Shown: positions 777 through 53,510 of the stretch, piece after piece
Position numbering within the stretch: the first letter of the stretch is position 1
Layout: every line of letters starts with the position of its first letter
NCBI RefSeq assembly: GCF_004010195.1
Contig: NC_057713.1
Span: forward strand, 102,416,124 to 102,480,123
Direction: 5' to 3'
Source: Chiloscyllium plagiosum
Taxonomy: Eukaryota
DNA: 64,000 bases
The notes under the pieces: generated by a model
The model's database searches: none
What the model was told of the DNA's origin: nothing
The model's input: the letters and a program-made list of their open reading frames with translations, nothing else
Position numbers and translations under genes: made by a program

Positions 777-1726
777 GGGTAAAAACAATGACTACAGATG
801 CTGGAAACCAGATTCTGGATCAATGGTGCTGGAAGAGCACAGCAATTCAGGCAGCATCGAGGAGCTTCAGCAAAATCGACGTTTCGGGCAAAAGCCCTTC
901 ATCAGGANNNNNNNNNNNNNNNNNNNNNNNNNNNNNNNNNNNNNNNNNNNNNNNNNNNNNNNNNNNNNNNNNNNNNNNNNNNNNNNNNNNNNNNNNNNNN
1001 NNNNNNNNNNNNNNNNNNNNNNNNNNNNNNNNNNNNNNNNNNNNNNNNNNNNNNNNNNNNNNNNNNNNNNNNNNNNNNNNNNNNNNNNNNNNNNNNNNNN
1101 NNNNNNNNNNNNNNNNNNNNNNNNNNNNNNNNNNNNNNNNNNNNNNNNNNNNNNNNNNNNNNNNNNNNNNNNNNNNNNNNNNNNNNNNNNNNNNNNNNNN
1201 NNNNNNNNNNNNNNNNNNNNNNNNNNNNNNNNNNNNNNNNNNNNNNNNNNNNNNNNNNNNNNNNNNNNNNNNNNNNNNNNNNNNNNNNNNNNNNNNNNNN
1301 NNNNNNNNNNNNNNNNNNNNNNNNNNNNNNNNNNNNNNNNNNNNNNNNNNNNNNNNNNNNNNNNNNNNNNNNNNNNNNNNNNNNNNNNNNNNNNNNNNNN
1401 NNNNNNNNNNNNNNNNNNNNNNNNNNNNNNNNGTTATGGTTGGAGGGGTGGGGTCTGAGGGCGGAGGTGCGGGATGTGGACGAGATGCATTGGAGTGCAC
1501 CTTTAACCACGTGGGAAGGGAAATTGCGGTCTCTAAAGAAGGAGACCATCTGGTGTGTTCTGTGGTGGAACTGGTCCTCCTGGGAGCAGAAACGGCGGAG
1601 GCGGAGGAATTGGGAATACGGAATGGCATTTTTGCAAGAGATAGGGTGGGAAGAGGTGTAATCCAGGTAACTGTGGGAGTCGGTGGGTTTGTAAAAAATG
1701 TCGATGCTGCCTGAATTGCTGTGCTC
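777..1726 (-). mobile_element. 5'-truncated Penelope-like element (RT thumb fragment plus terminal repeat with hammerhead core), spans an assembly gap
   Basis: Minus strand encodes DIFYKPTDSHSYLDYTSSHPISCKNAIPYSQFLRLRRFCS, a PLE RT C-terminal motif. 1701-1726 is an inverted copy of about 835-860. A 15-bp direct repeat TGGCCTCATTCTATG lies at 762-776 and 1727-1741 (TSD). Confidence 0.85.
908..1432. other. Assembly gap (N run)
   Basis: Run of N; ORFs that cross it are artefacts. Confidence 1.
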
Positions 1727-1789
1727 TGGCCTCATTCTATGTTCGTTGTTCCAGGATTGGTCAATTAATTATAATCTGTAATATCAACT

Positions 1790-2320
1790 GACCAACCTCA
1801 CCTCCCCTCACAAAACCAGACACTCTCATATACTCCCAGTCCCCAGCAACTCACTTCCCACCAACACCACAAATTCTCCCAACATCCACAGCCCATGCAC
1901 TAGCAGGCAAAGCCCCAACCACAACCCCTCAGCCACCATTCTCCCCACATTCCCACCACCAAACAACTACTACTACTACCACCATCACCACTCCATCAAT
2001 CCACGACTATCCAACCACAAACCCGCCAACCTCAACACCCCACTAATCCCACCCACCAATCACTCCACATTCTGTCATCCCGATGCACTCCGTAACTTCC
2101 TCCCCCAACGTCAGTATGCCATACCACACCCAACTAGTCACGACCAACCCCCTATAACACCACCCCACATTTGGTACCAAATCTTACTCCCATCACCAAC
2201 ACACCAACATTCTCACTCCCATCACCACTACAACCCCCTCAACCCATATCCCCTATCACAACCCCTGAAACCCTGCTTCTTAAGACAAGTCCCTGAAACC
2301 TAACCTCATTCCCCGGCAAA
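1790..2320. repeat. C/A-rich low-complexity tract
   Basis: Strong strand bias (ccacca, caaccc) without a clean period. Confidence 0.6.
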
Positions 2321-2551
2321 TGCACTCTCAGTTATACTGTGCATAATAGTCTCCCTTCTAGTCATCAAAAATATTGGCACTAAATAGTGCAATTACCAAA
2401 TGTAAGCATGAAAAATAACCTTTCATTCCAATCCTCCCCCATATTCATGACCAGTTTTAATAACTATTCTACCTACTGCTCTTCATTGTTGGCAAGTTAA
2501 CTTATTCCATTTCTCAGTATTGCTTTTATCTACTCTTTTTTTTAAACTTAC

Positions 2552-3121: not shown

Positions 3122-3264
3122 ATAGCACAATATATATTTTCCTTGAATTGCCTAGATTAAATGTGATCTGATTGTAAATTCAATGTGCTATGATAGCACA
3201 ATATATATTTTCCTTGAATTGCCTAGATTAAATGTGATCTGATTGTAAATTCAATGTGCTATGA
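3122..3264. repeat. Tandem duplication, 2 x 71 bp
   Basis: ATAGCACAATATATATTTTCC...CAATGTGCTATG starts at 3122 and again at 3193. Confidence 0.9.
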
Positions 3265-3500
3265 TACAGCACCTACAGTTTGCTCCACTCATCACAAACA
3301 ATTTGGGAAAGAGAGGGTTGGAACATGACAGTGGCAATTACTGGATGCAATGACAACTTAAAGGCCTTTGTAAAAAAACATTGATGATGAATTCTATAAT
3401 TGATAAATATCAAAATTAAGGAATGCATTTTTTGGGCTGCCTAACTAAATTATTTAATTAAGCTGGGGGAGGAAATATTGTTGGTCTCAATCATACTTAC

Positions 3501-3759: not shown

Positions 3760-4279
3760 GATTCGAAGATGCCGGTGTTGGACAGGGGTGTACAAAGTTA
3801 AAAATCACACAACACCAGGTTATCGTCCAACAGGTTTAATTGGAAGCACACTAGCTTTCGGAGCGACGCTCCTTCATCAGGTGATTGTGGAGGGCTCGAT
3901 CGTAACACAGAATTTATAGCAAAAATTTGCAGTGTGATGTAACTGAAATTATACATTGAAGAATTGATTGTCTGTTAAGCCTTTCATCTGTTAGAATACA
4001 GCTAACCCGAGAATGCAACTTTTAAAAAAGGGTTTTGTGATTTACACATGAAAGAAGTGAAACTATCAAAGTATTCTAACAGATGAAAGGCTTAACAGAC
4101 AATCAATTCTTCAATGTATAATTTCAGTTACATCACACTGCAAATTTTTGCTATAAATTCTGTGTTACGATCGAGCCCTCCACAATCACCTGATGAAGGA
4201 GCGTCGCTCCGAAAGCTAGTGTGCTTCCAATTAAACCTGTTGGACTATAACCTGATGTTGTGTGATTTTTAACTTTGTA
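3760..4279. mobile_element. Fold-back (long inverted repeat) Penelope-derived element with a hammerhead core in each arm
   Basis: About 3790-3999 is the reverse complement of about 4071-4279. CCTGATGAAGGAGCGTCGCTCCGAAAGCTAG is on the plus strand at about 4189-4219 and on the minus strand at about 3851-3881. Flanking direct repeat TGTATTAATATT at 3748-3759 and 4276-4287. Confidence 0.8.
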
Positions 4280-6151: not shown

Positions 6152-6526
6152 CATTAGATTCCATACAGTGTGGAAACAGGTCCTTCAGCCCAACATGTCC
6201 ACACTGACCCTCCGAAGAGTAACCCACCAAGAACCATTCCTCTCTGACTAAAGGGCAATTTAGACCTGCACATCTTTGGGAGGAAACCAGAGCACACGGA
6301 GGAAACCCACGCAGACACAGGGAGAATGTGCAAACTCCACACAGACAGTCTAAAGGGCAATTTAGACCTGCACATCTTTGGGAGGAAACCAGAGCACACG
6401 GAGGAAACCCACGCAGACACAGGGAGAATGTGCAAACTCCACACAGACAGTCACCTGAGGCTGGAATCGAACCTAGAACCCTGGTGCTGTGAGACAGCAG
6501 TGCTAACCACTGAGCCACCATGCCAC
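6152..6526 (-). mobile_element. tRNA-derived V-SINE (HE1-like) with an internal ~102-bp tandem duplication
   Basis: Minus strand begins GTGGCATGGTGGCTCAGTGGTTAGCACTGCTG (A box) ... GGTTCGATTCC (B box), followed by the V-domain TGTGTGGAGTTTGCACATTCTCCC. About 6249-6350 is repeated at about 6351-6452. Confidence 0.9.
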
Positions 6527-6532
6527 TCCAAA

Positions 6533-7376
6533 ATTAAAAATCACACACCAGGTTATACTCCAACAGGTTTAATTGGAAGCACACTAGCTTTCGGAGCGAT
6601 GCTCCTTTATCAGGTGATTGTGGAGTGCTCGATCATAACACAGAATTTATAGCAAAAATTTGCAGTGTGATGTACCTGAAATTATACATTGAAAAATTGG
6701 TTGTCTGTTAAGCCTTTCATCTGTTAAAATACAGTGACAGTTTCACTTCTTTCATGTGCAAATCACAAAACCCTTTTTTTAAGTTGCATTCTCGGGTTAG
6801 CTGTTAACAATGGTGATAGCTAGACAATATGTTGAAGAAGGTGTTAGCCCCCTGTGTTCTCTGTCTATGACCTGATGTTTAGGTTGATTCTAATCTAAAA
6901 AGTGAGATAACAGAGTTTTACATAAATTGAGCGAGCTCAAAAACTGCATGAATTTATGTAAAACTCTGTTATCTCACTTTTTAGATTAGAATCAATCTAA
7001 ACATCAGGTCATAGACAGAGAACACAGGGGGCTAACACCTTCAACATATTGTCTAGCTATCACCATTGTTAACAGCTAATCCGAGAATGCAACTTTAAAA
7101 AAAAGGGTTTTGTGATTTACACATGAGAGAAGTGAAACTATCACTGTATTCTAAAAGATGAAAGGCTTAACAGACAAATGTATAATTTCAGTTACATCAC
7201 ACTGCAAATTTTTGCTATAAATTCTGTTATGATCGAGCCCTCCACAATCACCTGATGAAGGAGCATCGCTCCGAAAGCCAGTGTGCTTCCAATTAAACCT
7301 GTTGGACAATAACCTGGTGTTATGTGATTTTTAACTTTGTACACCCCAGTCTAACACCAGCATCTCCAAATCATGG
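6533..7376. mobile_element. Fold-back Penelope-derived element, ~400-bp arms, same family as 3760-4279
   Basis: About 6533-6928 is the reverse complement of about 6950-7335. Hammerhead cores at about 7251-7280 (+) and 6585-6615 (-, mutated). Confidence 0.85.
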
Positions 7377-8195
7377 CTCCAAACTTAGCAAGGGTTTAAC
7401 TCATTTTGCCACGTTTACAAGATGTTACAGATTGTGACATAGATATTTATTTCCCTCAAAAAACAAACATCCAAATCACTGCGTGGGTTTGAAGATACAA
7501 CCGAAGTAATGCTGCATGCGACAACAAATACACAGCAGCTGAGCTTATCCCTTCGGATAACGGGGACTGACGTACAGCCTAAATCAGCTTTGCAGTCTCA
7601 GCCTGAAGATGAAGCAGCAGAGGCTCTCCTCGGATTGTTTCGAATTAATGTGGAATGCTTCCCCGGCAGATGACAGTCGAGGATGAATGCTCATGAAACT
7701 TATTTCACAGCCTCATTTCATTCAGCCGATGTTAAGAATATATCAGTAATTTGAAACTCTTCTATTATTCAGAAACGAAGGGCCCAAGAGTGAGAAGAAC
7801 TCAATAACCTGCACCGAGGTTCGACTCTGCAAATTCACACACACTGAGCAAGCATGACATTCACTGGCCTCGCAGCCTCCTGCCATGGGCATCGGGGAGG
7901 TGGGTATAGGTCTGATTGGAGTTAGAGAAGCAGGATGGGGTCTGGTTGGGATGGGAAATGGAATCGGTTTGGGGACGGCATGTTCCCAGTGTAGAGATGT
8001 CCTGATCCAGAGGGAGGGGAATTGGGATTCGGTCCAGTGGGGAATCTGATTCTGAGTCTAGGGGTTGGTGGCGATCGTGACGGCCAGGAGACTGGGCTTG
8101 CTAGGTCAGCCTGGTCCAAGGTGAGAGGTTTCCGTTCCGGAAGGAAGGAAACGGAGAGTGCAGGGGTCGCTCAGGCCCGAGGATCAGTCACTTAC

Positions 8196-8260
8196 CCGCT
8201 GCCCGCTCCGCCGTTGTCATAGCGCCGCCGCGAGAGACGCTCTGATGGCGGCGCAAGAAC
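8196..8260 (-). other. BBS9: BBS9 exon 1 (5' UTR); upstream boundary approximate
   Basis: GC/CpG-rich segment ending in GCGG|GTAAGT on the minus strand (donor at 8190-8195), upstream of the ATG exon. Confidence 0.75.
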
Positions 8261-8320
8261 GGAAGTTCCTGGCGCCTTGGCAGCAAGGTCTGATGGGAAA
8301 TGTAGTTCTTTGTTGCCGAG
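8200..8320. promoter_or_regulatory. BBS9 CpG-rich promoter: RFX X-box-like, YY1, ETS and ZNF143/THAP11-like motifs
   Basis: GTTGTCATAGCGCC (X-box-like, about 8213-8226), GATGGCGGCG (YY1), CGGAAGT (ETS), GCGCCTTGGCAGC (second X-box-like) and GGGAAATGTAGTTC (reverse ACTACATTTCCC). RFX control of BBS genes is established. Confidence 0.7.
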
Positions 8321-8341
8321 TTTCTGCAAAACTTCCTTAAG

Positions 8342-8535
8342 ACATGATTTGGAGTTGCCGGTGTTGCTCTGGGGTGTACAAAGTTAAAAATCACACAACA
8401 CCAGGATTTAGTCCAACAGGTTTAATTGGAAGCACTAGCTCCGAAAGTTCTGATGAAGTCATCTAGATAGGAAACGTTAAGTTGCTCTCTCTCTCCATGG
8501 AGACCAGTTATGATCTCAAGCATTTGTTGTTTACA
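8342..8535 (+). mobile_element. Two fused Penelope-type terminal-repeat fragments
   Basis: 8342-8445 matches the start of the 3760 element. CTGATGAAGTCATCTAGATAGGAAACGTTA (about 8450-8479) is a degenerate hammerhead-like core of another family. Confidence 0.6.
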
Positions 8536-8577
8536 GTTAAGACACCGTCCATTCTCTTCCATGCAGGGACCTCAGTG

Positions 8578-8790: not shown

Positions 8791-8941
8791 TCTTTATATT
8801 TCAGACCTATACCCACCTCCCCGATGCCCATGGCAGGAGGCTGCGAGGCCAGTGAATGTCATGCTTGCTCAGTGTGTGTGAATTTGCAGAGACAGAATTT
8901 GTAGTCATAGAGATATCATATGCTAAAATGGTTATAGTGTG

Positions 8942-9480
8942 TGTGGGAGGTTAGAAATGTAGTTTCTGCAGGTGGGGGAGGGGAAGGGGAACATTATACA
9001 AACGATCGCGGACTTCTTGTAGCATGTCGCATACTTAAGGCTAAGACTTTAATGAATATAGAGGGTCTTTTAAAGAAAATAGTTTTAAGCTAGGAAATAA
9101 CTATGAAGGGTTGTAGCTGACCATAAAAAGAAGCAGCAGGGGCATTTCACAATAAAGCTTATGGTATGATAAGAGAAACTGGATAAAAGAACAAGCTGTA
9201 GCAAACAAGAAACAAAGAATGCAGACATACAATGACGGCAGGATGGCCAGGTAAGAAAATAACTAGAGAAAAAAACAAGTGAGGTAATCAGCTTATGATA
9301 GGATGGGAAAAGGGAGGCATGATTCCACAACTTGTAAACTGAATAAGAATGCTAACATGCTCTGTTTTTGCATGCATTTCTACTTGATTGCAGAAGCGTC
9401 CGGTACTTGCAAAGCTGTAATAAATTTTTCTTGTTTCCAAGGCTTTGTCTCAGGCTGATTTGTGACGTCTGTTTCCCACA
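8942..9480 (+). repeat. ERV 5' LTR
   Basis: TGTGGGA...TCCCACA terminal inverted repeats; AATAAA near 9419; direct repeat of 14160-14670. Confidence 0.95.
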
Positions 9481-9482
9481 AT

Positions 9483-9500
9483 TGGGGGCTCGTCTGGGAT
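9483..9500 (+). promoter_or_regulatory. Primer binding site, tRNA-Pro
   Basis: TGGGGGCTCGTCTGGGAT lies 2 nt after the LTR, one mismatch from the MLV PBS-Pro TGGGGGCTCGTCCGGGAT. Confidence 0.93.
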
Positions 9501-10497
9501 CCAAACCGCCGACCGCCCGACACTCTTGGGACGACGGGGGAGGTGCACCTCTCCAATTTCGGTCATCTCCGACTCTGTTGCTTGTCGTTCGCGGTTTGGG
9601 CGAGTACGATCTGGACTGGGAGACCCTAAAAACAAGGTGGGCAGACGCGGCAGGTTCAGTCGGGCAACTCTTGTGCACAAGACCCAGGTAGGGAAAGGTC
9701 TTAAAGGATATATCCGAGCGACCGGAGGCAGCGGTATTTGCTGCAGGAATTGCCGCGGGATGGGGCGCACCAACACAACCAGATAACTCTGTGCACAGAC
9801 CAAGGTAAGAAAAGAGACTTTTAAGTATTGCCTTGGTGGTCGGGACGTATGAAAGTACGGGGAATTTTGCGATATATAAAATAAAGCATATGTCAATGGA
9901 AAACAGCCCATGTCAGAAGGGCTAGTAGCTGAAGGGCTACTGAGGGTGCACTTCATAACTAGCTTATGGCCAGACGTCCAGAAGAATATTCAAAAGCTAG
10001 AGGAGTCGTTGCGGGAAGCTCAAAGTGTCTGTGAGATACGATGTCTGTGTGTGTGTGAGAGAGAGGGAGAGAGAGAAAAGAGCTGTACAGCTAGTAGAAA
10101 GTTTAACCCTTTGTGATTCAGTTTGAATGCACATTTGTTTGTTGGTGATTGAGTGTTTGTGCTTTGTTCCCTGGAGCTTGAGATCTGGGACTGTTTTGAA
10201 TCTGATTTCTACTATGGAAATTTTAACATGATTTCTTTTAAGGTTAAGGATTTTACAGATTATGAAATAAAATGTTAACTCCTGTTCTTTTTACAGGTCA
10301 TGACTGCCTTACTATCAGTTTCTAACTAATCTCTTTTATCCTTACATGAAAGTAATTTATGGAGAACAGTTGAAGTCTCAAAAAAACCATATAATTGGTC
10401 AGATTAATCGGACAAGTAAGGTGTCCAGTCAGGACCCTGAAGGGGGTGTGGAAGAAGGTGACACCAGACCTCGTTAAGATTAATTAAATTATCAACA

Positions 10498-12018
10498 ATG
10501 GGAGGCACGGGGAGTTGCCTGTGTAACGATCGATCTGTAAATAACGTTAAAGGGGATATATCCTGCCCGACAGTTCTTTAGGGAGAATGTTGGGTAATTG
10601 GGAACACAACTCCCCGACGCGGGAGAAAGATAAGGCCACAATGATAAACTATTGTTGTTTTGTCTGGACTAGAGAAAGTATTAAGGCGGTTGGTATTTTT
10701 TGGCCCAAATATGGGTCTGATGAGGATTGGCTGTGTCAAGATCTTAATATATATGTCAATCGAAAAGAACCGTACAGTCAAAAAGAGTCCGATTATGCGG
10801 CTTGTTGGATAGGGAGCGCAGGAGTAAAATTATGTCCCATGAATACGGAGGAATCAGGGAAAGAACAGAAAAAGAATGAACAAGGGAAGCCACAGTGGGA
10901 TCCCTTAACGTGTTTGCTGCCCCTGTATACTACTCCCCAGAACATGCCTTCAGCTCCCGAAGTAGAACCGAGTCCAGACACAGAAAAGGGAACGGACTCT
11001 GAACTAAAAGATGCAGAACCTAGGGGGCTCAGAATCACTCGAGCCACCACACGTAAAGGAGGGGCAGAGATAATGGAAAATGTAAAATTATGTCCCTTAC
11101 GAGAGGTTCCGATTGGGGAACGTACAATCGGATATGTAAACGCTCCCTTAACTAGAAGTAAAGTTAGGGTCTTTAAAAAGAAAATGAAAAGTTTAATGGA
11201 GGATCCGGTTGGACTAGCCGAACAATTAGATCAATTCCTAGGGCCTAATTTATATATCTGGGGAGAACTGATTGCAATTTTAGGAACGTTGGTTTCAGGG
11301 GAAGAACGAGGTATGATTAGGAGAGCGGCTTTATAGGAATGGGAAAAGAAGCACTCAGTTGGGGAAGAAGGGGCCCCAGCAGAACAGAAATTTCCAAATG
11401 TTGACCCTCTTTGGGAAAATAATAATAGAGAAGATAGGGAGTCAATGCGGAATCGACGAGAAATGGTAATATTAGGAATTAAAGAGACGGCACCTAGATC
11501 ACAAAACTTTGTTAAGGCCTTTGAAGTACAACAAGTGAAGGATGAAACCCCTTCTGCATTTCTTAAAAGGCTCAAGGATGCCACAAGGAAGTATTCGGGA
11601 ATGGATCCCAATAATCCGATAGCACAGGGACTCTTACAGGTCCAGTTTGTAACTAAATCATGGTCAGACATACAAAAGAAATTTCAGAAATTAGACGGAT
11701 AGAGTGAAAGACAGATGGAAGAACTGTTACGTGAGGCACAGAAGTGTATGTGAAAAGGGAAGACGAGAAGCAGAAAGAGAAAGCCAAAATGATGGTGGCG
11801 GCAGTAGAAGAAATAACAAAAAGGAGAATGGGATCAAGGGATAACAGGAAGGGTAGGGGAGGACACGAAAGACAAGTGTCAGATACCCGGGAAAGGAGGC
11901 AACAGGCAGGGTGTTACCATTGCGGGAAAGTGGGGCATTTTAAACGGGAATGCCCAGAATTAGCACGAGAAAGGGAAGCCGTTTCCCTAATGACCGTTTC
12001 CCTAATGATGAAGATTAG
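10498..12018 (+). pseudogene. gag: ERV gag (frameshifts and stops)
   Basis: MGGTGS myristoylation-type start; matrix-like MINYCCFVW...WPKYGSDEDW; capsid MHR-like QQVKDETPSAFLKRL; a single CCHC knuckle CYHCGKVGHFKREC; ends DED-TAG at 12016-12018. Confidence 0.92.
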
Positions 12019-12620
12019 GGGAGTCAGGGGTTTCTTCCTCCTGAGACCCACCAGGAACCCTTGGTAAATTTAAAGGTGGGACCTGAAGGGGAGGAGGCAG
12101 TATTTTTGGTGGACATGGGAGCGGCACAATCATCCCTAAGTTTTAGACCTACCGGTGTTAAATTGACTAACAAGAATCTCAGGGTTTCCGGAGTAAAAGG
12201 CAAGGAATTCTTGGTGCCTATTTTTGGGCCAACCCTAATTAGAGGAAATGATGAGGAAGTGACAGGACAATTACCAACTGTAGAGTTCAATGATAAGTTT
12301 TTAAAGAACTATATTGTGGTGCTCGGCTCTTCTTTGTCTGTCCTTAGGAAGAAGGGTCTGTTGACCCAGACACCTCCACTTGAGTTCGCCGTACATCGAA
12401 TACAACCAGGTGACTGGGTCCTGATCAAAACCTGGAAAGATACCAAACTGCACCCAAGCTGGGAGGGACTGTTCCTAACCCTCCTGACTATTGAAACAGC
12501 CATCCGAACTGCTGCACTTGTGTTAAGGGCCCCGTGGACGCTCCTTCCCCTCCGGCAGAGTGGCAAGCTCATCCTACAGACAACCCTCTGAAAGTCAAGC
12601 TGAGCAAAAAGAATGGACTG
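12019..12620 (+). pseudogene. pol: ERV pro fused in frame to the integrase C-terminus (RT, RNase H and IN core deleted)
   Basis: FLVDMGAAQS is a mutated DTG protease site. It runs directly into HRIQPGDWVLIKTW...WEGLFLTLLTIETAIRT, the integrase C-terminal GPY/F-type domain. Confidence 0.9.
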
Positions 12621-12748
12621 AGATAAGAGACTATTAAGTATTGGTTAAAAAAAAACTGTATCCCAAAATAATTGTAAGTGTTGCATGGACTCACTCCTCC
12701 CTGGTATTTAAAGGGTTAGGGAATAGACAGATAGGGTTGTGAGCTGAA

Positions 12749-14040: not shown

Positions 14041-14136
14041 AATGTAAGATTGTGAACCTCATCGCCAAAAGGCGTAAGAGGGCAGAACATAAGAAAATGG
14101 ATTAAAGGAGACTGAATAAGTGCAGAAACAACAGTT

Positions 14137-14159
14137 AGAGAAAAAGAAAAAGGGGGAAT
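14137..14159 (+). promoter_or_regulatory. Polypurine tract
   Basis: AGAGAAAAAGAAAAAGGGGGAAT immediately before the TG of the 3' LTR. Confidence 0.9.
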
Positions 14160-14670
14160 TGTGGGAGGTTAGAAATGTAGGTTCTGCAGGAGGGGTAAGG
14201 GGAACATTATACAAATGGTCGCGGGATTCTTGTAGTATGTAGCATACTTAAGGCTAAGACTTTAATGAATATAGAGGGTCTTTTAAAGAAAATAGTTTTA
14301 AGCTAGGAAATAACTATGAAGGGTTGCAGCTGACCACAAAAAGAAGCAGCAGGGGCATTTCACAATAAAGCTTATAGTATGATAAGAGAAACTGGATAAA
14401 AGAACAAGCTGTAACAAACAAGGAACAAAGAATGCAGACATACAAGGAAGGCAGGATGGCCAGATAAGAAAACAACTGGAGAAAAAAACCAAGTGAGGTA
14501 ATCGGCCTATGATAGGATGGGAAAAGGGAGGCGTGTTTCCGCAACTTGTAAACTGAATAAGAATGCTAACATACTCTGTTTTCGCGCGCATTTCTGCTTG
14601 ATTGCAGAAGCGTCCGGTACTTGCAAGGCTATAATAAATTGTTCTAGTTTCCAAGGCTTTGTCTCAGGCT
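14160..14670 (+). repeat. ERV 3' LTR (last ~24 bp missing)
   Basis: Homologous to 8942-9456; diverges after GTCTCAGGCT and lacks the ...TCCCACA end. Confidence 0.93.
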
Positions 14671-18255: not shown

Positions 18256-18329
18256 AATGGAAAGGGCAAATGAACTATCACTTTTCTATAATTCTATATT
18301 AACGTTCTGCCCCAGAAAAGAGCCAAAAT

Positions 18330-40000: not shown

Positions 40001-43000
40001 CCGGGAGCTGTAGTCTGAGTCTGACATCAATACTAGGTATGTTATTGGAGGAAATTCTGAGGGATAGGATTTACATGCATTTGGAAAGACTAGGACTCAT
40101 TAGGGATAGTGAACATGGCTTTGTGGATGGGAAATCCTATGTCACAAGCTTGATTCAGTTTTTTGAAGAGGTGATTAGCAAGGTTGAAGGCACACAAAAG
40201 ACATTTGTGTGGATTTCAGTAGACTAGTTAGCAAGTTTAGATCATGTGGAATCCTGGAAGAGCTAGGAGAAAGTGAGGACTGCAGATGCTGGAGATCAGA
40301 GCTGAAAATGTGTTGCTGGAAAAGCGCAGCAGGTCAGGCAGCATCCAAGGAACAGGAGAATCGACGTTTCAGGCATAAGCCCTTCTCCTGGAAGAGCTAG
40401 CCAATTGGATACAAAATTGGCTTGAAGGTAGGAGACAGAGCATGATAGTAGAGGATTATTTTTCAGAGTAAAGGCCTTTGACCAGCAGTGTGCCACAAGG
40501 ATCTATGCTGGGCCCACTGCTTTTCAAGATTTTATATAAATGATTTGGATATGAATATAGGAGGTATAGTTAGTAAATTTGCAGATGACACAAATAGGTG
40601 ATGTTATGGATTGTGAAGTTTGAGTACGACAGGACTTTGATCAGATGGGCCAAGGAGTGGCACATGAGTTTATCAGATACGTGTGTGATGCTGCATTTTG
40701 GTAAGGCAAACGAGGGGAGTTAATGGTCGGGCCCTCTGGAGGGTTGCCAAACAAAGAGATCTAAGGATGCAGATGCATAATTCCTCAACAGTGGAATTGT
40801 AGGTAGACAGTGGTGAAGAAGGCATTTGGCATACTTGCCTTCATTGTTCAGTGCATTGAGTATAATTGGGATGTCATGTTGCAGCTGTACAGGACATTGT
40901 TGAAGCTACTTTTAGAATACTGTCTTCAATTCTGGTCTCTCTGCTAGAGGAAAAATGTTGTTAAACTTAAAAGGGTTTAGAAAATATTTACAAGGAAGTT
41001 GTCGGGATTGAAGGGATAGAGCTACATGGAGAAGCTGAAAAGACTGCCTCTTTTCCCCTCAAGCATTGGAGGCTGAGGACTGACCTTAGAGGTTTACAAA
41101 ATCAAGAAAGACATGGAAAGGGTGATTAGCCAAGGTCTTTTCCTCAGAGTGAAGGAGTCCAAAACTAGAGTGCATAGGTTTAAGATGAGAGGGATAAAAT
41201 TTAAAAGGAACTTGAGGGTAACCTTTTCACACAGAGGGTGGTGCGTATATGAAATGAGCCAGATGAGGTGATGGAGGCAGATACAATCACAATGTTTAAA
41301 GACATCTGGATAGGTATGTGAATAGGAAGAGTTTAGAGAGATATGGGCCAGATGCTTAGTTTAGGATATCTAGTCGGCACAGACAGTAAGAAGCAGGCCA
41401 TTTTGCCCATGGCGTCCACACCAACCTTACAAAGAGCATCCCACCCAGACCCAACCCCGTCCCTGCATTTCCCTTGGCCAATCCACCTAACCTGCATATC
41501 TTTGGACTGTGGAAGGAAACTGGAGGACTGAGGAAACCCACACAAACATAGAAACTCCACACAGTCCCTGAAGCTGGATTCGAACCTGGGACCCTGGCAC
41601 TGACGCAGCAGTACTGACCACTGAGCCACCATGTCACCCATGGCAAGTTGGACCAAAGGATCTAGTGCTGTATAACTCTGACTCTAGGAGTGATGCTTCA
41701 CTGTTGTGGAGTCTGTGTAAAGTTGTTCAAATTATAGCTTGGGTTTTTCATTTTGTTACAAATATAATGACAGCAATGGGTGAATGTTCAGTAACTGACC
41801 ACATCACAAATTACAAAACAAAACTTGACTTCTCTGTCCAGATTTTAGTCTGAAATTGATTCTTTCCAATATAGCCATTAGCTGAGATCATAACATTGTG
41901 TACTGCCCCAGTAAAAGGATACATAATCAACTTATTCCTATATTGCTGCCAGTGTTACTGTTAAATCTGCATCACTTCCTCTCTTCCAAATAGATGATTT
42001 GGCTGGGATCTAAAATACTCATACAAACAAATGCACAGTTGTACTGTTGTCCAAGATGTACAACTTTATGAATGCCTTTGAATTTTGTAGCTATTAATCC
42101 TTTTATTTAGAATAAAGCACAATATCTATCAATAAATTCACTCACTGCCTTGCGTATCAAGAGTTAGGCATGATCACTATGCTTTTTTAAAAAGCTTGCC
42201 AAGTAGTATGTTAAATATGTTATCCCATTCTAGAGATGGTTACGAACTATTCTTCGATAAGCTGAACGAACATAACATCCCAGTCTTCATATTCTCTGCT
42301 GGCATTGGTGATGTACTAGAGGAGATTATTTCTCAGGCTGGTGTCTTTCATTCAAATGTGAAGGTAGTCTCCAACTTCATGGACTTTGATGAGAAGGTAA
42401 TTTGAAATCCGAATTCCTTTTTTCTACAATTTACAATGTTGCAAAGAACCTAGTAATCCTTTGCAAGAAAGAACTTGATTACAACAGTGTCTATAATTGG
42501 AAACAGTCTTTTTGATATAGTCCTTGTGAAAGATGTTTAACTGTGATTCGCGGAGCCACATTTTCACACAGTAATGGTTACTTTTAATAGATGAAAGGCA
42601 TTGTTTAAGGTCAAAATAACTTGTGCAACATATTATAACCCACATGTATGTGTTTGCTGTTAAATAGCAAAAGTCATTCAGCTGAGATTTTCTCATTTCA
42701 GGGTATTTTAAAAGGCTTTAAAGGTGAGCTTATCCATGTTTATAATAAACACGATGGAGCCATAAGAAGCTCGGAGTACTTCGATCAACTAAAGGAGAAT
42801 TGTAACATTATCCTTCTGGGTGATTCATTAGGAGACTTGACCATGGCAGATGGTGTTCAAAATGTTGAAAGCATTCTCAAGATTGGATTCTTAAATGATA
42901 AAGTAAGAAATAGTAAGACAAATCATTAGTATTAATTAGGGTCATATGATTATAAGAATTAGGAGCAGCTGTAGATAATTCAGCCTTTCAAGCCCACTCT

Positions 43001-44477: not shown

Positions 44478-46759
44478 TATGAACACTGAAGATATACAGG
44501 CCTGTGCAAGCTCAAAACCGAAATACTCTTCTACCATTCATGTCATTTAATTGAACAGCCTCTTTCTTTTTTTTGAAAATGCTGTTCATTCTTCAGTACC
44601 TGGAACTTAAAATATTCTTAAAATTTGCACGAATGTGTCTGCAGTGAATAAAGGGAATAATGTGTGTTCTTTAGAAAGATTGGCAATTACACAAATAGGT
44701 CAGCCATGGGCAGATTTTAAACTACCTCTTAGATTTAGTTTAAATTCTGACTTTAACATTTAAAAGAATCTGTGTGTAGTTTTCAGTATATGTTCTCTCA
44801 AAAGAGAGAAGTATTGTAAGCTTGATGTACTATGGCTACATTGTGTATAACTATTGCAAGTTCTATACAAGAAACAAGCACTCTGAAGCAGTTTTTGATT
44901 TTTCAAATGTTTTTTAGATAACTAAGGATGCTGTTGGTTTACTTGTCACAGTTTGTGTTGCCTATTGAACATTGTCATTTGCATATTTTAAAATGAATGT
45001 ACATGAAAGAAATATTTGTACAGTACATTAAAGTTGGTGGAGAGATTTTTAAACACTGGGCTCTAATTTCTTAAAGCCGTTTAAATTTATTATAACAAAC
45101 TCCCCATTCCGTCTGGAAGAGTTGAATGGTGGCTAGATGTTTAGTATGGGGAAAAATGGGTTTCAATTCATGGAGTGCTGGCATCAACACTAAAGCAGTT
45201 GTACCATTGGGACAGTGTGAGAATTATGCAGAGACTAGTTTTCTAGAGCGTCAGTGCTATAGTGATGATACTAGTGAACTTGTAATCCAGAATAACCTCC
45301 AGCTGGTAGAAATTCAACAAAACCAGTCATTGGTAATGCTGACTGTGAAACCATTGTAACAATTCATGAGAGTCACTGGTTCCATGAGTGGTTTAGCCTA
45401 AAGGTGACTTGACCTATGGCTGACCCTTTAACTGCCCTCTGAAATGAGCTCCTGAGTTACTCAATTGTATAAAACTGCCATGAAGTCTAAAGGATTGAAA
45501 CCAGATGGTCTTTGCAGCAGTTCCTAGTCACTGGAAATGACAATATGGAACCTAATACTGTTGTTTCTGCAAAGTTCTCTCAGCTTTGACACTAGTCACC
45601 AGCAGTTAGTAAATCTGTGTCATAGAATAGTCATGCAGCACAGTAATTATGGTGCTATTCATAGGATTGTATCTTACAGACAATGTCATAAATATTACCA
45701 CTCCCTTCCCTAGGTATTTCTTGTCTGGATTTGGTTTTTTTTTAAGTCTTCAATAGAAAATCAAAGGGCATGTGGACAAAGAAACATAAAACTAATCACT
45801 AGGATTTAAGGCTGACAAATGCCCTGAACCTGACAACCTGTATTAGATAAGTTCTAAGGAAGGGTCATGTCCTGAAACATTAATTTTGATTTCTCTTCAG
45901 TTGCTTTCAGAGCTGCTGAGCTTTTCCAGCAACTTCTGTTTTTGTTAGTTGTAACTTTCCTGTTATCAGTGAAGCTAGAAAAGTGCATTGTTACTCAACA
46001 GATCACAGCATAAAATACTTTTCCAAGTTAACAAGATGGTAAAGCAAATGCCTTAAGTTTCAAATAAAAAAAAATTATCAACCAGATTATTAAATGTGAT
46101 TATTCGTTTATTAAAGTTTATTAAACAATGAAAGAATGCAATAACTGGTTAGCATATAATCTATAACTTGGAAGGATTAATTGTCTGTTTTTCTAAATAA
46201 GATAGAAAAAAATTCAGGAAAATAATCTCTCCAGAGATTAACTATAGAGAAGACATTTTCTGGCCACTATGGTGACTCTTAAAGGCAGAATAAGAGTGTT
46301 GAATGTTCCAGTTGTCATCAACCATGCACAGTTGTCTCTGGAATCTCTGAGGACCGTTTGCTCAGGAAGTACAATAGTGAGAAGTTCCTTCAATCATTTC
46401 TAGAAGGACTCTGAATTCAACAAGATGGTTCTTTTCAGGACAGCCTTTTTTCTCAATCCGGACACTGTTGAAACCACCCAGCAGGGGTCTACAGTAAAAC
46501 GAGCAATTATCAAGTCATAAACTAACTTGATTTAAAGAAATTCCAATATCCAGAATGACTTTGCAATAGCCACCTTAAAAGAAACATTCTAGGTATTTGC
46601 ACAAAACTTGAAATAAGTTGAATAAATTGATTTTCCACAATTGTTTAGAACTTGTCTGAGAAATATGAAATGAAATGTCTTTGCAATAATTTCACCCTTG
46701 AAAGCAATGAAACATCATTCATATATATCAGCTGGGAAGCCCATCCTCAGGCTTACTTT

Positions 46760-47185
46760 CCTCCAAGGTAGTTGAGACAGCGATAGGTGGACGAAGGCGA
46801 GTGAGAAGGTGATAGGTTGAGGGGGGGGAAAAGAGAGGAAGAGTGAATGGACAGGTCCAGAAGGTGGTGCTGAGATAATATGGTGGGAGGGGAAATGAGG
46901 AAGCTGTTGAAATTCACATTTATCCCATGTGGTTGCAGGGTCTCAAGGTGGAATATGATGTGTTCCTCCTCTATGTGTCAGGAGATAATGGTTTTCCCCT
47001 TCTGACCTAATCACCTTCTCCCTCACCTTTATCCACCACCCCTTAATTTATCTCTCAGCCCTGACGAAGGGATTATACCCAAAATGTCGATTCTCCTGCT
47101 CCTCGAATGCTGCCTGACCTGCTGTGCTTTTCCAGCACCATACTCTCGACTCTGATCTCCAGCATCTGCACTCTTCACTTTAACC
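46760..47185. mobile_element. Penelope-like element remnant (GIY-YIG C-terminus plus inverted terminal repeat)
   Basis: Minus strand about 46900-46975 encodes EEEHIIFHLETLQPHGINVNF. A degenerate hammerhead CTGACGAAGGGATTATACCCAAAATGTC lies at about 47061. Confidence 0.75.
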
Positions 47186-47256
47186 CTGCACTATCAGGCA
47201 ATACACTTGGTTTCGAAAAAGAGATTGACAAATTAATATAGTTCTTTGAAGTAGTA

Positions 47257-48853
47257 GTCAAGGATAGTAGTGGGAAATTGCGTGTGGAGGCGGAAGAGAT
47301 TGGGGAGACACTAAATGAATACTTTTCTTCAGTATTTACTCAGGAACAGGGCATTGTAGTCGATGTGAATACTGAGTCACAAATAAGTAGAATGGATGGC
47401 TTTGAGGTATGTAGAGAAGAGGTGTTGGAAATCCTGGAAAAGGTGAAAATAGATAAGTCCCCTGGGCCTGATGGCATTTATCCTAGGATTCTCTGGGAAG
47501 CAAGGGAGGAGATTGCAGAGCCATTGGCCTTGATTTTTATGTCCTCTTTGTCTACAGGAGTAGTGCCAGAAGACTGGAGGATAGCAAATGTGGTTCCCTT
47601 GTTCAAAAAGGGGAGTAGGGATAACCCTAGTAACTATAGGCCGGTGAGTCTCACTTCTGTTGTGGGCAAAGTCTTAGAGAGAATTGTAAGGGATAGGATT
47701 TATGCACATCTGGATAAGAATAATGTGATCAAGGATAGTCAGCATGGTTTTGTGAAGGGCAAGTCGTGCCTCACAAACCTTATTGAATTCTTTGAAAAGG
47801 TGACGAAGGAGGTTGATGAGGGGAAAGCGGTAGATGTGGTATATATGGATTTTAGTAAGGCGTTCGATAAGGTTCCCCATGGTAGGCTACTGCAGAAAAT
47901 ACGGAGATATGGCATTGAGGGTGAGTTGGAGGTTTGGATTAGGAATTGGCTGGATGGAAGAAGACAGAGGGTAGTAGTTGATGGCAAAGTTTCTTCATGG
48001 AGTGCCGTCACTAGCGGTGTTCCGCAAGGATCTGTTTTGGGACCATTGCTGTTTGTCATTTTTATAAATGACCTGGAAGAGGGGCTAGAAGGTTGGGTGA
48101 GCAAGTTTGCGGATGATACAAAAGTCGGAGGAGTTGTTGACAGTGAGGAAGCATATGGCAGGTTACAGCAGGATATAGAGAAGCTGCAGAGCCATAGCTT
48201 TAAGTTAAGGGGTGGTAGGTATAGGACAGATGTTAGGGGTAGATTTGGCATATGGCGTACTGGCTTTTATTGGTAGAGGAATTGAGTTCTGGAGTCCTGA
48301 GGTCATGATGCAGTTGTATAAGACTCTGGTGCGGCTGCATCTGGAGTATTGTGTGCAGTTTTGGTCGCCATACTATAGGAAGGATGTGGAGGCACTGGAA
48401 CGGGTGCAGAGGAGGTTTACCAGGATGTTGCCTGGTATGGAAGGAAGATCGTATGAGGAAAGACTGAGACACTTGGGGCTGTTTTCATTAGAGAAAAGAA
48501 GGTTTAGGGGTGACTTGATTGAGGTGTACAAGATGATTAGGGGGTTAGATAGGGTTGACAGTGTGAACCTTTTCCCGCGTATGGAGTCGGGTATTACAAG
48601 GGGGCATAGCTTTAAATTAAGGGGGGGTAGATATAGGACTGAAGTTAGGGGTAGGTTCTTCACTCAGCGAGTCGTAAGTTCATGGAATGCCCTGCCAGTA
48701 GCAGTGGTGGACTCTCCCTCTTTATGGGCATTTAAGCGGGCATTGGATAGGTATATGGAGGATAGTGGGTTAGTATAGGTTAGGTGGGCTTGGATCGGCG
48801 CAACATCGAGGGCCAAAGGGCCTGTACTGCGCTGTATTCTTCTATGTTCTATG
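47257..48853 (+). mobile_element. Young CR1 LINE, 5'-truncated, internally rearranged
   Basis: 332-aa and 188-aa ORFs with intact RT motifs ([22 protein letters not shown]); (TTCTATG)n tail; GTAGTA flanking repeat inside an older CR1. Confidence 0.93.
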
Positions 48854-50177
48854 TAGTAATAAATAGGGTGGATAACAAGCAGCCAGGTAGGGTGTATGGG
48901 ATTCACAAAAGTTGTCACGTAAAAGGTGGAGTCTGTTGTTTGGGAAAATAGATTATCATGGATAGAGTATAAGCTAGCCAACAAAGCTTATTTGGGATAA
49001 ATGGCTCATTTTTAGGATGGAAAGCTATAACTAGTGGAGTGCTAGAGGGATTAGTGATAAGGCTTCAACTATTTGCTGTCTGTATTAATAGAGGAGGCTG
49101 ACTGTATTGTCACTAAATTTCTTACAATATTTAGATAGGAAAGCCACATTATGAAGAGGATAAAAAGAATCTGCAAAGATTGTAATTCAACTTTTTGCCC
49201 ACTTTCAATGTGGACAAATTTCACTCTCTGTACATTGGAATGTGAAATGCCCTGTACAGGAATAATATGTTGAACATATGAATAATCAGTGAAATAAATG
49301 AAAAAGCAAAAAAGATCTCACCTCCCTTACGCCTCTTCCCTTGCCCAGCCAATATCCCGTGCTTCCAATGCTACCTTTAACAAGGATATGGAGATGCCAG
49401 TGTTGGATTGGGGTGGACTTTTGACTTAATTAAATGGAAGTTTTGTTCAAGGCAAAATGATCCATGACCTCGGCCCTCAAATTTCAGACAGAATGCCTAA
49501 GGTGAATGTTAATAAAGGAATTCACCAAAACAAGCATCAAAGATACTAGATCTGGATAGCAAATAGCTGAATCAATCTCCTTTGATGGAACCATCAATCA
49601 CTGCTTCAAGTGTAAACCGCCCTATATCACTATCAAAGCATAATGTAAATTTCTTGCCTCCTCCAGCTTGTGGAATGTTATAAATACAGTAACTGGGTAC
49701 AAGATTTGAATTGATGTACCTTTCAATATTTCAGTTGTATAATAAAACTCTTCATTCTACGTGACCAAAGTGTCAGTGCATAACCAGTGAAATTCCAACA
49801 ATTTAAAATCACTCCATAGATGGAAGATATACAAAATTGAGATATACCATGCCAGAGTCAGATGTTTACATAAATACAGCAGAACGTAAACACAAAAATT
49901 CAAAGAAACATCCAAACTGCTTCCATTTTTTCACCACAACATGCCCATGTACTATATGGCACCATTTATTGACAACATTTGTCTGAATTTGAGTAAACAG
50001 CAAATAATTGGACTGATCGTGGAATTTTTAAAGTAAATTGTGTGGTATTTGCCAAAAGCAAAGAATTTAATATTCATTACAAACTGCATAATTTTAGACT
50101 GCAGAGAAATGGAGGGAGAACACCTCATCTTGGAACTTGGGACCTTCAACCACACAACATCAACATTGATGTCACTA

Positions 50178-51500
50178 GTCATAGATTCATAGAGATGTAC
50201 AGGACAGAAACAGACCCTTCAGTCCAATTCATCTATGCCGACCAGATATCCCAATCCAATCTAATCCCACCTGCCAGCACCTGGCCCATATCCCTCCAAA
50301 CGCTTCCAATTCATATACCATCCAGATGCCTTTTAAATGTTGCAATTGTACCAGCCTCCACTACTTCCTCTGGTAGCTCATTCCATACTCGTGCCACCCT
50401 ATGTGTGAAAAAGTTGCCCCTTAGGTCTCTTTTATATTTTTGCCCTCTCACCCTAAACCTATGCCATCTAGTTCCGGACTCCCTACCCGAGGGAAAAAAC
50501 TTTGTCTATTTATCCTATCCATGTCCCTCATGATTTTATAAACCTCTAGGAGGTCACCCCTCAGCCTGCAATGCTCCAGGGAAAATAGCCCAAGCCTATT
50601 CAACCTCTCCCTTCAGCTCAAATACTCCAAACCTGGCAACATGCTTGTAAATCTTTTCTGAATCTTTTAACGTTTCACAACATCTTTCCAATAGGAAGGA
50701 GATCAGAATTGCACATAATATTCCAACAGTAGCCTAAGTAATATCCTATACAGCCGCAACATGACGTCTCAACCCCTGTACTCAGTACTCTGACCAATAA
50801 AGGAAAGCATAGCAAACACCTTCTTCACTATCCTATCTACTTGCGACTCCACTTTCAAAGAGCTATGAACCTGCACTCCAAGGTCTCTTTGTTCAGCAAC
50901 ACTTCCTACGACCTGTAGAAGTGTATAGGTCCTGCTAAGGTTTGCTTTCCCAAAATGCAGCACCTTGCATTTATCTCAATTAAACTCCATCTGCCACTTC
51001 TCAGCTCATTGGCCCATCTGATCAAGATCCCATTGTAATCTGAAGTAACATTCTTCACCGTCCACTACACCTCCAATTTTGGTATCATCTGCAAACTTAC
51101 TGATTATACCTCTTATGCTCACATCCAAATTATTTATATAAATGTTGAAAAGTAGTGGACCCAGCACTGATCCTTGTGGCACTCCACTGGTCACAGGCCT
51201 CCAGTCTGAAAGCCAACCCTCCACCACTACCCTCGGTCTTCTACCTTTGAGCCAGTTCTATATCCAAATGGCTAGTTCTCCCTGTATTCCATGTGATCTA
51301 ACCTTGCTAACCAGTCTCCCATGGGAAACCTTGTTGAATGCCTTATTGAAGATCTCATCTACCGATCTGTCCTCATCAATCCTCTTTGTTACTTCTTCAA
51401 AAAACTCAAGAAAGTTTATGAGACATGATGTCCCATGCACAAAGACATGTTGACTATCCCTAATCAGTCCTTGCCTGTCCAAATACATGTACATCCTGTC
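50178..51500 (-). mobile_element. CR1 LINE 3' half inserted in a Penelope remnant
   Basis: RT motifs on the minus strand; the flanks 50100-50177 and 51500-51690 are PLE-like (LQPHNINID; terminal repeat). Confidence 0.88.
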
Positions 51501-53319
51501 TCCCGTCCCCCATCTCATCTCAGATTCTACCCTCCAATTCAGTACTGCCCTCTTCATCTGTCCATCTTCCTTCCAACCTATCTGCTCTACCCTCCCCATT
51601 GACCTGTCAATCATAAAGGGCTCACGCTCGACTCTCCTGCTCCTCAAATGCTGCCTGATCTGCTGTACTTTTCTAGCGCCACATTTTGACGGCAGAAAAA
51701 TATTAAATGCTTTAGCTTAATTATAAATAAATTGCACCAAAACCTTTCTCTATTAAAGCATGAGTTTTCTGCAGACTTATTTAAAGTAGTTTCTTGAAAA
51801 GTCAAAAAGATGTTTTTAAAAATGAAAACTTGATTCTCCATAATTGAGCAGTGCTATAAAAATTTCTACTTCAAAACACAAGAATCAGCAAATCCTTAAA
51901 CTGAAGGCTGAAACTTTGTTTACCCTCAAGGAGTTGTCTTTGGAATGCTTTGAAGTCAGACAACAATTAAAAAGGCTATTGGAGTGCTGCCAAGTTTCAA
52001 AGGCGGCTCTGAATTCAAAAGAGAGAATTGATAGTTCAGTTATACAGAGCCTTGGGTAGACCTCATGTGGAGTAATCCTGTTCAAGTTTGACAGTGCAAT
52101 GACTTCAGAGAATATAGAGTACAAATTCACCACAACAATACCAGATCTTGCAGGATTCAAGTACAATGACAGGTTGCATAATCTTGGGTCCTGATTATTG
52201 GCACTAAAATGACAGGAATGTGGTGGGTACATTGAGAAATTATTTCTTCCAATTGAGGAATCCGAAACAATGAAACGTGATCTTACAATTAGAGCAAGAT
52301 AACTCAGGTGGAACACTAAACGTTCTGTTACATAAAGGGTAATGGCAATTTGTAAATATCTCCTCTAAAAGACTGTGAAGGTTGAAGTTTTACTAAGATT
52401 GATTTTTGTTAGACAATGATCCAAACATTGTGAAGCAAAATAGACCTGTGCCACAATCTAACTGAACAATGGAGGAGGTTCAAGAAACTGATGGCCACTT
52501 CCTGTTCACACATCAGCTCAAAGTCTTGATCTATTGGAATGACAGCACTATGAAGCCTTGAATGGGGCTTTCAATATCTACATTGGAGCTGCAGAATGGA
52601 GTCCCAGAGAACAGGACTCTGATAGCAACAGATCTGTGTTCAAACATCCCTGGTCCAGTAAGTGATGATTAAGCACATTCGGATGACTTCATGCAAAAGA
52701 CATTGTTGAAGACAACTGTACAGTATGTATCACAGTTAGATGATAAAGAATATTGATGCTGCCAATTGTTCTGTGGATCTTTCAAGTCCATAATGAATAT
52801 TCAGATGATGTGAAGCATGAAGTTTAGGACTGTTCCAATCTTGCTTGGCTAACAATTGGCTACATTTTTGGTTTTAGAAAGGACAGCCTCTAGGTCAAAA
52901 ATGGCAGCTTGCTGCTCCATGACTTGAATTACATGGAATCAAACAGCAACAAATTTATTTTCCCTGCAGTTCATAAACTCTACAGATTACGCACAAATTG
53001 TTTAACAGAAGCTAGTTACAATGAGAGAAAGAGCTAAGCTTTCTTGAGAAAACTCCATCTTTACATATGCTTCAAACTCTTGGCTTCCAATTGGAAAGTA
53101 ATGTTCAGCTTTTGACTGGATATGATTAGCAAGTTGTTTTTTGATTACTCTGTCAAATGTAGATCCGTAATGACTATTCACTGAACTATGGGAAAATGTC
53201 ATGGCATTTCACAACAGGTACAACAAGGAGGCAGACCCTCAGGCTACTGCCAGAACAGGAGTCAAACCTATTGCTTTTGGCATCAATCTGATCCATACAC
53301 TGGAAAAAAAATAAATCAC

Positions 53320-53510
53320 TGAGTATGCTGGAGATCTGAAATAATAACAGAGTTAGAGAAACTCAGCAGGTCTGGCAGCAGCTGTGGAGAGAGAAAACAC
53401 AGTTAATGGTTCAAGTCCAATATGACTAGATATCAGAACCAAAACAGTAACTCTGTTTCTCTCTCCATAGATGCTGCCAGAACTGCCATGTTTCTCTAAC
53501 ACTTAGCTTC
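53320..53510. mobile_element. Degenerate Penelope-type hairpin mini-element
   Basis: Inverted arms CTGGCAGCAGCTGTGGAGAGAGAAA and TTTCTCTCTCCATAGATGCTGCCAG. Confidence 0.6.

Follow-up and report, generated by a model that had tools for sequence, protein, structure and literature searches.

What are the short, often back-to-back units that carry hammerhead ribozyme motifs in the genome of the shark Chiloscyllium plagiosum? We address this question in a window of 64,000 nucleotides (RefSeq assembly GCF_004010195.1, contig NC_057713.1, positions 102,416,124 to 102,480,123 of the forward strand), the whole stretch of DNA that was analysed; all coordinates below count from its first letter. A first-pass annotation, made from the letters alone, assigned the units to Penelope-like elements (PLEs) and proposed that they are non-autonomous, retrozyme-like mini-elements. 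We arrive at a different account: with a probability of roughly 0.8, the units are by-products of PLE insertion, truncated at their 5' ends, and each back-to-back pair was likely built at insertion, not copied as a unit. The kind of element is already known (minimal hammerheads in truncated PLEs); what is new is a polyadenylation (poly(A)) site in one family, here called B, and an insertion, here called E4, that is a chimera of 2 families.

Hammerhead motifs in the window

A strict descriptor, composed of CTGANGA, a stem II of at least 4 bp, GAAA, a palindromic 4-mer for helix III, and a stem I of at least 2 bp, matches the window 5 times: at 878-905 (-), 3852-3880 (-), 4190-4218 (+), 17014-17041 (+), and 17853-17879 (-). 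The chance level is a mean of 0.005 and a maximum of 1 in 200 dinucleotide shuffles. All features of the minimal type I hammerhead of PLEs are present: the CUGANGA and GAAA boxes, the bulged base before stem II, G10.1-C11.1, the palindromic helix-III 4-mer, a short stem I, and an NUH triplet at the cut, which is GUC, CUA, or GUU in the 5 intact motifs. Other occurrences of CTGANGA, such as those at 10717, 29063, and 59116, fail the descriptor and were rejected.

The first-pass annotation listed 7 main loci, and the core is intact at 5 of them; the copy at 7252 lacks U16.1 (it reads GCCA), and at 27381 both stem II and the palindrome are broken. The 7 degenerate copies on its list were all located by alignments and a profile search, the latter being circular where the copy itself went into the profile, and the palindromic 4-mer that it saw in place of helix III is there in the 5 intact motifs. 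Its covariation of stem II holds in that 2-sided changes occur between families, but in the family-B stem II 5 bp enclose a loop of 3 nt, instead of the 6 bp and 1-nt loop that the annotation gave. Among families A, B, and C, those with intact copies, both sides change at 10.3-11.3, 10.4-11.4, 15.2-16.2, and stem I positions 2 and 3; G10.1-C11.1, G10.2-C11.2, and the catalytic boxes are invariant. This covariation comes from 3 independent lineages, counted without a statistical test.

Rfam recognised no hammerhead family in the window, whether at gathering score or with E relaxed to 10; the matches obtained reflect hairpin similarity to miRNA models, below their thresholds. Such blindness, we infer, is no surprise where helix III lacks a loop. 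Minimum-energy cofolding gave no catalytic dimer, a fold that is beyond the reach of that method. The 5 motifs correspond to a density of 26-184 intact motifs per Mb (Poisson 95%; one window). The sequence supports the view that the motifs are minimal type I hammerheads and that the terminal repeats holding them belong to several Penelope-like families. The annotation was right about the PLE origin and about at least 3 families: we distinguish families A, B, and C and a D/E/F group, with target-site duplications (TSDs) and a head-to-head layout.

Inventory of the insertions

Self-comparison, alignments, and profiles built from them yield 16 PLE insertions (E1 to E16) with 27 arms; the family labels A to F are our own. 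Together the insertions cover 4,893 bases, or 7.6% of the window, counting a 525-base gap in E1. An arm is called tailed where it overhangs the 3' end that it shares with its relatives.

777-1727, both strands: E1, family A; a long tailed minus arm, then a 27-nt plus arm without a tail; 15-bp TSD. The minus arm holds the intact hammerhead (878-905), an assembly gap (908-1431), and a PLE reverse transcriptase (RT) piece
1433-1702, minus strand: the RT piece of E1; open over 90 aa, 92% identical to Chiloscyllium punctatum proteins
3760-4279: E2, family B, head-to-head; left arm with a 35-nt tail, right arm without; arms 99% identical; an intact hammerhead in each (3852-3880 (-) and 4190-4218 (+)); 12-bp TSD
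6529-7378: E3, family B; left arm without a tail, right arm with a 37-nt tail; cores mutated in both; TSD uncertain (score 8)
8345-8536: E4, 2 families; a tailed family-B minus arm (8345 to ~8435) and a family-F plus arm without a tail (~8444 to 8536); a single 8-bp direct repeat
8450-8478, plus strand: the degenerate family-F core of E4
16890-17099: E5, family A palindrome; left arm with a 39-nt tail, cut within the core; right arm without a tail, with the intact hammerhead 17014-17041 (+); 14-bp TSD
17346-17505: E6, degenerate family D palindrome; left arm tailed; no TSD found
17665-18256: E7, family C, 2 arms; intact hammerhead 17853-17879 (-) and a degenerate one at ~18168 (+); 9-bp TSD core; interrupted by E8
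17728-17809, plus strand: E8, single family-A arm without a tail, nested in the left arm of E7; begins within the core; 10-bp TSD
26099-26268: E9, family A palindrome; right arm tailed; CUGA box gone; 15-bp TSD with 2 mismatches
27294-27513: E10, family A palindrome; centre 3-4 nt upstream of the core; right arm tailed; both cores mutated; 14-bp TSD with 1 mismatch
40267-40385, minus strand: E11, single tailed family-A arm; begins within the core; 15-bp TSD
45858-45950, plus strand: E12, degenerate single arm of the D/E group; begins at the core; no TSD found
46742-47181: E13, older family-A element; a PLE open reading frame (ORF) piece (46822-46977, minus strand), then a plus arm with upstream pLTR, a degenerate core at 47061, and a tail; no TSD found
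49385-49418, minus strand: E14, tail-only fragment of family B
51560-51690, plus strand: E15, degenerate family-A arm without a tail; core mostly deleted
53305-53515: E16, degenerate family D palindrome; left arm tailed; no TSD found

We accepted a TSD at a score of at least 9, which is reached by 2% of 300 random position pairs. At this threshold TSDs flank 8 of the 16 elements, 7 of them with 10-15 bp and 1 with 9 bp; 2 further elements score 8, and in E6 and E12-E16, the 6 oldest or shortest copies, no TSD is present even with wider windows. The 10-15-bp TSDs that the first-pass annotation attributed to the units are thus a feature of 7 elements. Its statement that they lack coding capacity applies to all but 2, since E1 (with its open RT piece) and E13 hold pieces of PLE ORFs. 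The head-to-head arrangement on both strands is seen in 9 same-family 2-arm elements, but both cores are intact in E2 only.

Anatomy of arms, ends, and centres

The architecture of the 2-arm elements is highly regular. In all 9 same-family pairs, one arm overhangs the shared 3' end by 25-58 nt and the other by 0-5 nt (E4 and E13, which are not mirror pairs, are omitted from this count). If each arm were tailed independently with a chance of 50%, such asymmetry would have P = 0.002. The distance from the predicted cut to the end of the arm falls into 2 classes, 55-62 nt and 89-105 nt, over 16 arms of families A, B, C, and F; some of the cut coordinates behind these distances are off by 1-3 nt. 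Family-B ends recur beyond the window, in DNA contigs from 2 organisms: the tail end is sharp at 7373-7375, with AT-rich and varied flanks, in 1,524 contigs of set X1 and 1,552 of set X14.

The centres behave differently from the ends. Among the 11 palindrome centres printed, all 11 differ within this one window, and the 3' ends are common. The first-pass annotation had expected identical boundaries to recur at different loci, and had taken breakpoints unique to each copy as the mark of plain truncated insertions; the window largely displays the latter, in that the 3' ends are common, in 2 classes, but the centres are all different.

E4 extends this anatomy to 2 families. Its tailed family-B arm adjoins one copy of the 8-bp repeat, and its family-F arm, which ends 58 nt past the cut and belongs to the no-tail class, adjoins the other; the family-B arm has no duplication of its own. 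The simplest reading of this arrangement would be one event with 2 RNA templates. Since 2 families lie within one duplication, fold-back of a single template cannot make E4.

At the 5' joints of E8 (17718-17727) and E11 (40386-40400), the target resembles the purine-rich core of the ribozyme. The resemblance suggests microhomology at these joints.

A model of insertion and its alternatives

We propose a mechanism by analogy with PAc, the Poseidon element of the anole Anolis carolinensis. (Statements on published work refer throughout to the sections of each paper drawn on here.) The GIY-YIG endonuclease would nick the 2 strands 9-15 bp apart, giving rise to the TSD, and the reverse transcriptase would prime at both nicks on PLE RNA, such that each arm would represent one priming event. 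Copying would start at 2 fixed internal sites, approximately 55-62 and 89-105 nt past the hammerhead cut, and yield the untailed and the tailed arm. Both cDNAs would halt early and then be joined head-to-head via a few complementary bases. The resulting stubs would contain the ribozyme motif on account of its position immediately upstream of the priming sites, and its presence there requires a template that was uncleaved at the ribozyme. The tail asymmetry in 9 of 9 pairs fits the 2 RT starts and the 2-strand priming of the lizard PLE (PMC11167929).

Several observations weigh against this account. The arms of one element are often each other's closest match (99% in E2 and E5), as fold-back copying would also produce, and TSDs are clear in only half of the elements. 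An opposite-strand joint, 7245/7283, recurs in 2 contigs of X1 and 5 of X14, and centres were compared within a single window, such that recurrence elsewhere in the genome is possible. E4 is a single case, and its repeat score of 8 is unexceptional in an unconstrained null. Finally, 12 of 21 non-B arms begin at approximately -6 to +10 nt around C3 of the CUGA box (binomial P of 1e-5 to 2e-3, with assumed window probabilities of 0.15-0.25 and positions read by eye), as do 0 of 6 family-B arms. These starts cluster irrespective of the tail, so the stop is set by template position and not by length, and random truncation is not sufficient for them. Most likely, they mark where the copied RNA began; an RT stop or a joint formed via the ribozyme's own complementary bases would give them too.

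The alternative raised by the first-pass annotation is a mini-family whose 100-850-bp units are transcribed, processed by the hammerhead, and put back into the genome whole by PLE protein acting in trans. The density of the units in the window (16 elements over 7.6% of its length) and the non-random truncation, with 5' starts clustered at the core in families A and D/E/F, would suit such a family. Single arms may also be re-copied in trans. Integration in trans can require no more than pLTR sequences (PMC3846280), and pLTRs are the origin of animal retrozymes according to a 2026 preprint (10.64898/2026.07.22.740005). We nonetheless consider it unlikely. No hammerhead lies among the 13 tandem-repeat rows of the window, and there are no head-to-tail units on the same strand; the centres are all different, and 2 elements include ORF pieces. 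Furthermore, pairing between the arms is predicted to bury the motif (-387 kcal/mol in E2 and -175 kcal/mol in E5), and only E2, among the 9 palindromes, has 2 intact cores. A head-to-head transcript would consist of a ribozyme and its antisense copy, predicted to be fully paired, and therefore would supply no dimer partner. The window hence lends no support to a separate replicating family.

Somewhat less probable still is fold-back self-priming, in which a short palindrome, often formed by the ribozyme stems, lets a single cDNA or antisense RNA fold back and copy itself into a second arm. This route has been proposed for rotifer PLEs (PMC3846280), and it would account for sister arms that are 95-99% alike in E2, E5, and E9 and for the several joints at self-complementary ribozyme bases. 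On its own, it leaves unexplained why the second arm has a fixed end 30-40 nt short in 9 of 9 cases and how the 2-family E4 arose, and the 5' reach of sister arms differs by tens to hundreds of bases in E1 and E2. By far the least credible reading is that of chance motifs or assembly artefacts: an assembly gap does lie in E1, and Rfam matches no hammerhead, but 5 motifs stand against 0.005 expected, the changes are compensatory, TSDs are present, and family-B ends occur in contigs of 2 organisms. For the motif as a whole, this reading is refuted. Our preference thus goes to truncated insertion products assembled from 2 priming events.

A poly(A) site in family-B RNA

Family-B RNAs are polyadenylated approximately 30 nt past the predicted ribozyme cut. 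The RNA evidence comes from one sample, a raw single-cell poly(A) run (X21) of which about 2%, or 12,955,460 records, were used; library type and strand were inferred from loose read ends. A further run, X22, yielded 0 matching reads and so carries no weight either way. Reads were aligned to the family-B arm 6965-7420 at 85% likeness. Among the 3,095 matching reads, 837 exit into A-runs, 419 after 7307 and 418 after 7312, with loose ends of approximately 70 letters. Strand-specific depth drops across the site by 72% in X21, compared with 7.5% and 5.6% in 2 DNA contig sets.

7292-7335, plus strand: family-B poly(A) signal; ATTAAA at 7292-7297, cleavage at ~7310-7312, and a GU/U-rich stretch beyond

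The site is 13-15 nt past ATTAAA; the predicted cut (7280) lies upstream of it, and both insertion ends (~7341 and 7373-7375) lie downstream. An AATAAA variant makes up approximately 28% of DNA depth at the hexamer position. Internal priming by oligo-dT was rejected: there are only 4 A in the next 20 nt, and no such loose end appears in the DNA rows listed (18 of 984). All 5 family-B arms have a poly(A) hexamer at most 60 nt from the cut, and none of the 10 non-B arms tested does; a hexamer near the cut is therefore specific to family B within the window. A distant marine relative has AATAAA 19 nt past its predicted cut.

Only 13 of the 3,095 reads are 99% alike to the E3 arm; the reads thus stem from other family-B copies across the genome, and not demonstrably from E3. 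They span the family-B cut with neither a drop in depth nor a pile-up of read ends, in a poly(A) library that is blind to cleaved products, so a pool of uncleaved RNA exists. A step in DNA contig depth near this cut (from 2.7 to 6.7 million) might have indicated copies that begin there but was set aside as ambiguous because a 2-nt indel subfamily and a variable stem II loop clip the alignments and because summed depth is no copy number. The literature yielded no report of a poly(A) site between PLE ribozyme and priming sites; none is described in PMC2377424, PMC6765202, PMC3601003, or section 10 of PMC8557442, as far as the sections drawn on go, and older Penelope work (1997, 2005, 2006) may describe one.

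The position of this site raises a tentative idea, which we regard as possible but doubtful: the family-B repeat may have a layout like the retroviral U3-R-U5, with the ribozyme, a used poly(A) site, and 2 priming sites, and the stubs may be strong-stop products. If so, a polyadenylated mRNA would carry the priming sites only at its 5' end, and stubs would be copied from the priming sites back to the 5' end of the RNA, as strong-stop DNA is. To reach full length, copying would then have to jump to the 3' end, go through a circle, or use read-through RNA. With its cut 11 nt ahead of the hexamer, the ribozyme would serve as a switch for removing the poly(A) end; host transcription, whichever strand it reads, would meet a poly(A) site in each family-B palindrome; and 2-family insertions such as E4 would show arms primed on separate RNA molecules.

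Reading frames and a marine relative

Family A is tied to a PLE reading frame through the pieces in E1 and E13, whose full-length relatives have RT and GIY-YIG domains and a CxxxxCxxC linker. The link is direct in E1, which spans tail, ribozyme, and RT frame, and so connects the family-A repeat with the RT/GIY-YIG frame; the protein family of its RT piece carries RT, the CxxxxCxxC linker, and GIY-YIG. The linker, a mark of the Neptune and Nematis clades (PMC8557442), is seen in P0003 and in the marine contig L004.

For family B, the frame link runs through relatives only: the marine metagenome contigs L002 and L004, which represent one element. L004 has a B-type ribozyme (94% over 36 nt) downstream of a frame with CxxxxCxxC and a GIY-YIG-like domain, and an inverted arm is found there too. 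The match suffices to show, at the level of sequence, that the family-B lineage is not confined to the Chiloscyllium shark. The B-type pattern occurs at 6 loci in metagenome contigs, 2 of them real (L002 and L004); the other 4 were set aside as chance matches, lacking a PLE protein match. The family-A pattern had 0 matches in metagenome contigs, and the B-type pattern had 0 in viral contigs.

Homology of L004 (1294-1470) and L002 to family B runs from upstream of the ribozyme into the tail region, approximately 750 nt past the PLE frame.

Comparison with known systems

Minimal hammerheads of metazoan PLEs are mostly solo or in opposite-strand pairs 100-700 bp apart, derived from truncated PLEs, and have low activity even as dimers; counts reach ~4,000 per genome in the coelacanth and ~9,000 in Xenopus (Cervera and de la Pena 2014, PMC4209133). 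The window motifs share with them the boxes, bulged base, G10.1-C11.1, palindromic 15.2-16.2, short stem I, and the presence of several families per genome. The sections of that paper drawn on mention no shark, and the density here would be higher if our one-window estimate held genome-wide.

In PLEs that encode an endonuclease (EN+), the norm for an insertion is an adjacent inverted copy, truncated at its 5' end, and a tail of 30-40 bp on one side only (Craig et al. 2021, PMC8557442; Arkhipova et al. 2013, PMC3846280). The shark insertions resemble the EN+ units of Neptune and Nematis type in 5' truncation, inverted copy, tail at one end, TSDs of 8-15 bp, and a protein with RT, a Zn-finger-like linker, and GIY-YIG. 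They differ in that most copies are arms of 60-130 nt, 5' starts in families A and D/E/F gather at the ribozyme, and one insertion mixes 2 families.

PAc offers a mechanistic parallel: it nicks and extends both strands, and its tail is defined by 2 internal RT starts; it inserts uncleaved RNA, ribozyme cleavage is not needed, PAc is predicted to be a dimer, and reads do not pile up at the cut (Frangieh et al. 2024, PMC11167929). The 2 internal starts downstream of the ribozyme, the uncleaved template, and the missing pile-up have counterparts in the shark. The PAc ribozyme overlaps the start of the ORF, whereas no such frame is seen for family B; in turn, family B has a used poly(A) site between the cut and both start sites, and none is mentioned for PAc in the sections drawn on.

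Non-LTR retrozymes are head-to-tail tandem repeats that give rise to circular RNA (Cervera and de la Pena 2020, PMC7229834; Li, Clavereau and Pollet preprint, 10.64898/2026.07.22.740005). The 2020 definition calls for a canonical type I hammerhead with a helix III loop and contacts between loops 1 and 2, and the 2026 preprint admits minimal motifs too. The window elements are similarly short, mostly non-coding, and akin to pLTRs, with a type I hammerhead, but they lie scattered, alone or head-to-head, their ends are at PLE priming sites, and helix III of their motifs is loopless. Finally, the hammerhead in the 3' UTR of mammalian Clec2 is split, active, and part of a host mRNA (PMC6765202). 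In both cases the cut is just upstream of the polyadenylation signal, such that cleavage would remove the poly(A) end; the shark motif differs in being minimal, predicted, and located in a retroelement repeat.

Genomic surroundings

The window contains a pyrimidine 5'-nucleotidase gene (Pfam UMPH-1) with 4 exons at 33083-42926 on the plus strand, probably NT5C3A. Its likely first coding exon is at ~18587-18723, in which case E9, E10, and E11 would be intronic. A GC-rich stretch at 8150-8300 includes an ATG and a splice donor (~8218, minus strand); E2 and E3 would lie downstream in a gene starting there, with the family-B poly(A) signal of their minus arms in sense orientation, and E4 would lie just upstream.

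Other repeats are numerous. A defective endogenous retrovirus occupies 8938-14670 on the plus strand, with 2 terminal repeats that are ~92-94% identical; Gag p30, zinc knuckle, integrase C-terminal, and Env fall in separate open stretches, pol is largely absent, and the frames are disrupted. LINE-type RT fragments (Pfam RVT_1) at 47242-48273 (+), 38925-39440 (-), and 29316-29585 (+) are among the most abundant long repeats of the window. SINE-like repeats are found at 6169-6526, 28917-29148, and 58588-59261, and E3 directly adjoins the 3' end of the first. An old inverted repeat at 22101-22799 (arms of ~230 nt with 78% identity, a 250-nt spacer, no hammerhead, and no second copy in the window) is possibly a decayed DNA-transposon derivative. 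Perfect tandem duplications at 3122-3266 (71 nt) and 6248-6452 (102 nt), with a 100% match, are recent or assembly artefacts.

Significance

The window provides a dense natural record of PLE insertion products, and it agrees with the sole in vitro study. It would extend the picture drawn from the lizard Poseidon element to candidate Neptune-type families of a shark. In family B, the poly(A) site fixes the RNA's 3' end upstream of the priming sites, which makes 3 matters testable: which RNA a PLE copies, how copies of more than unit length originate, and what purpose the ribozyme serves. If family-B copies do end host transcripts, they would constitute a widespread source of premature polyadenylation in this genome.

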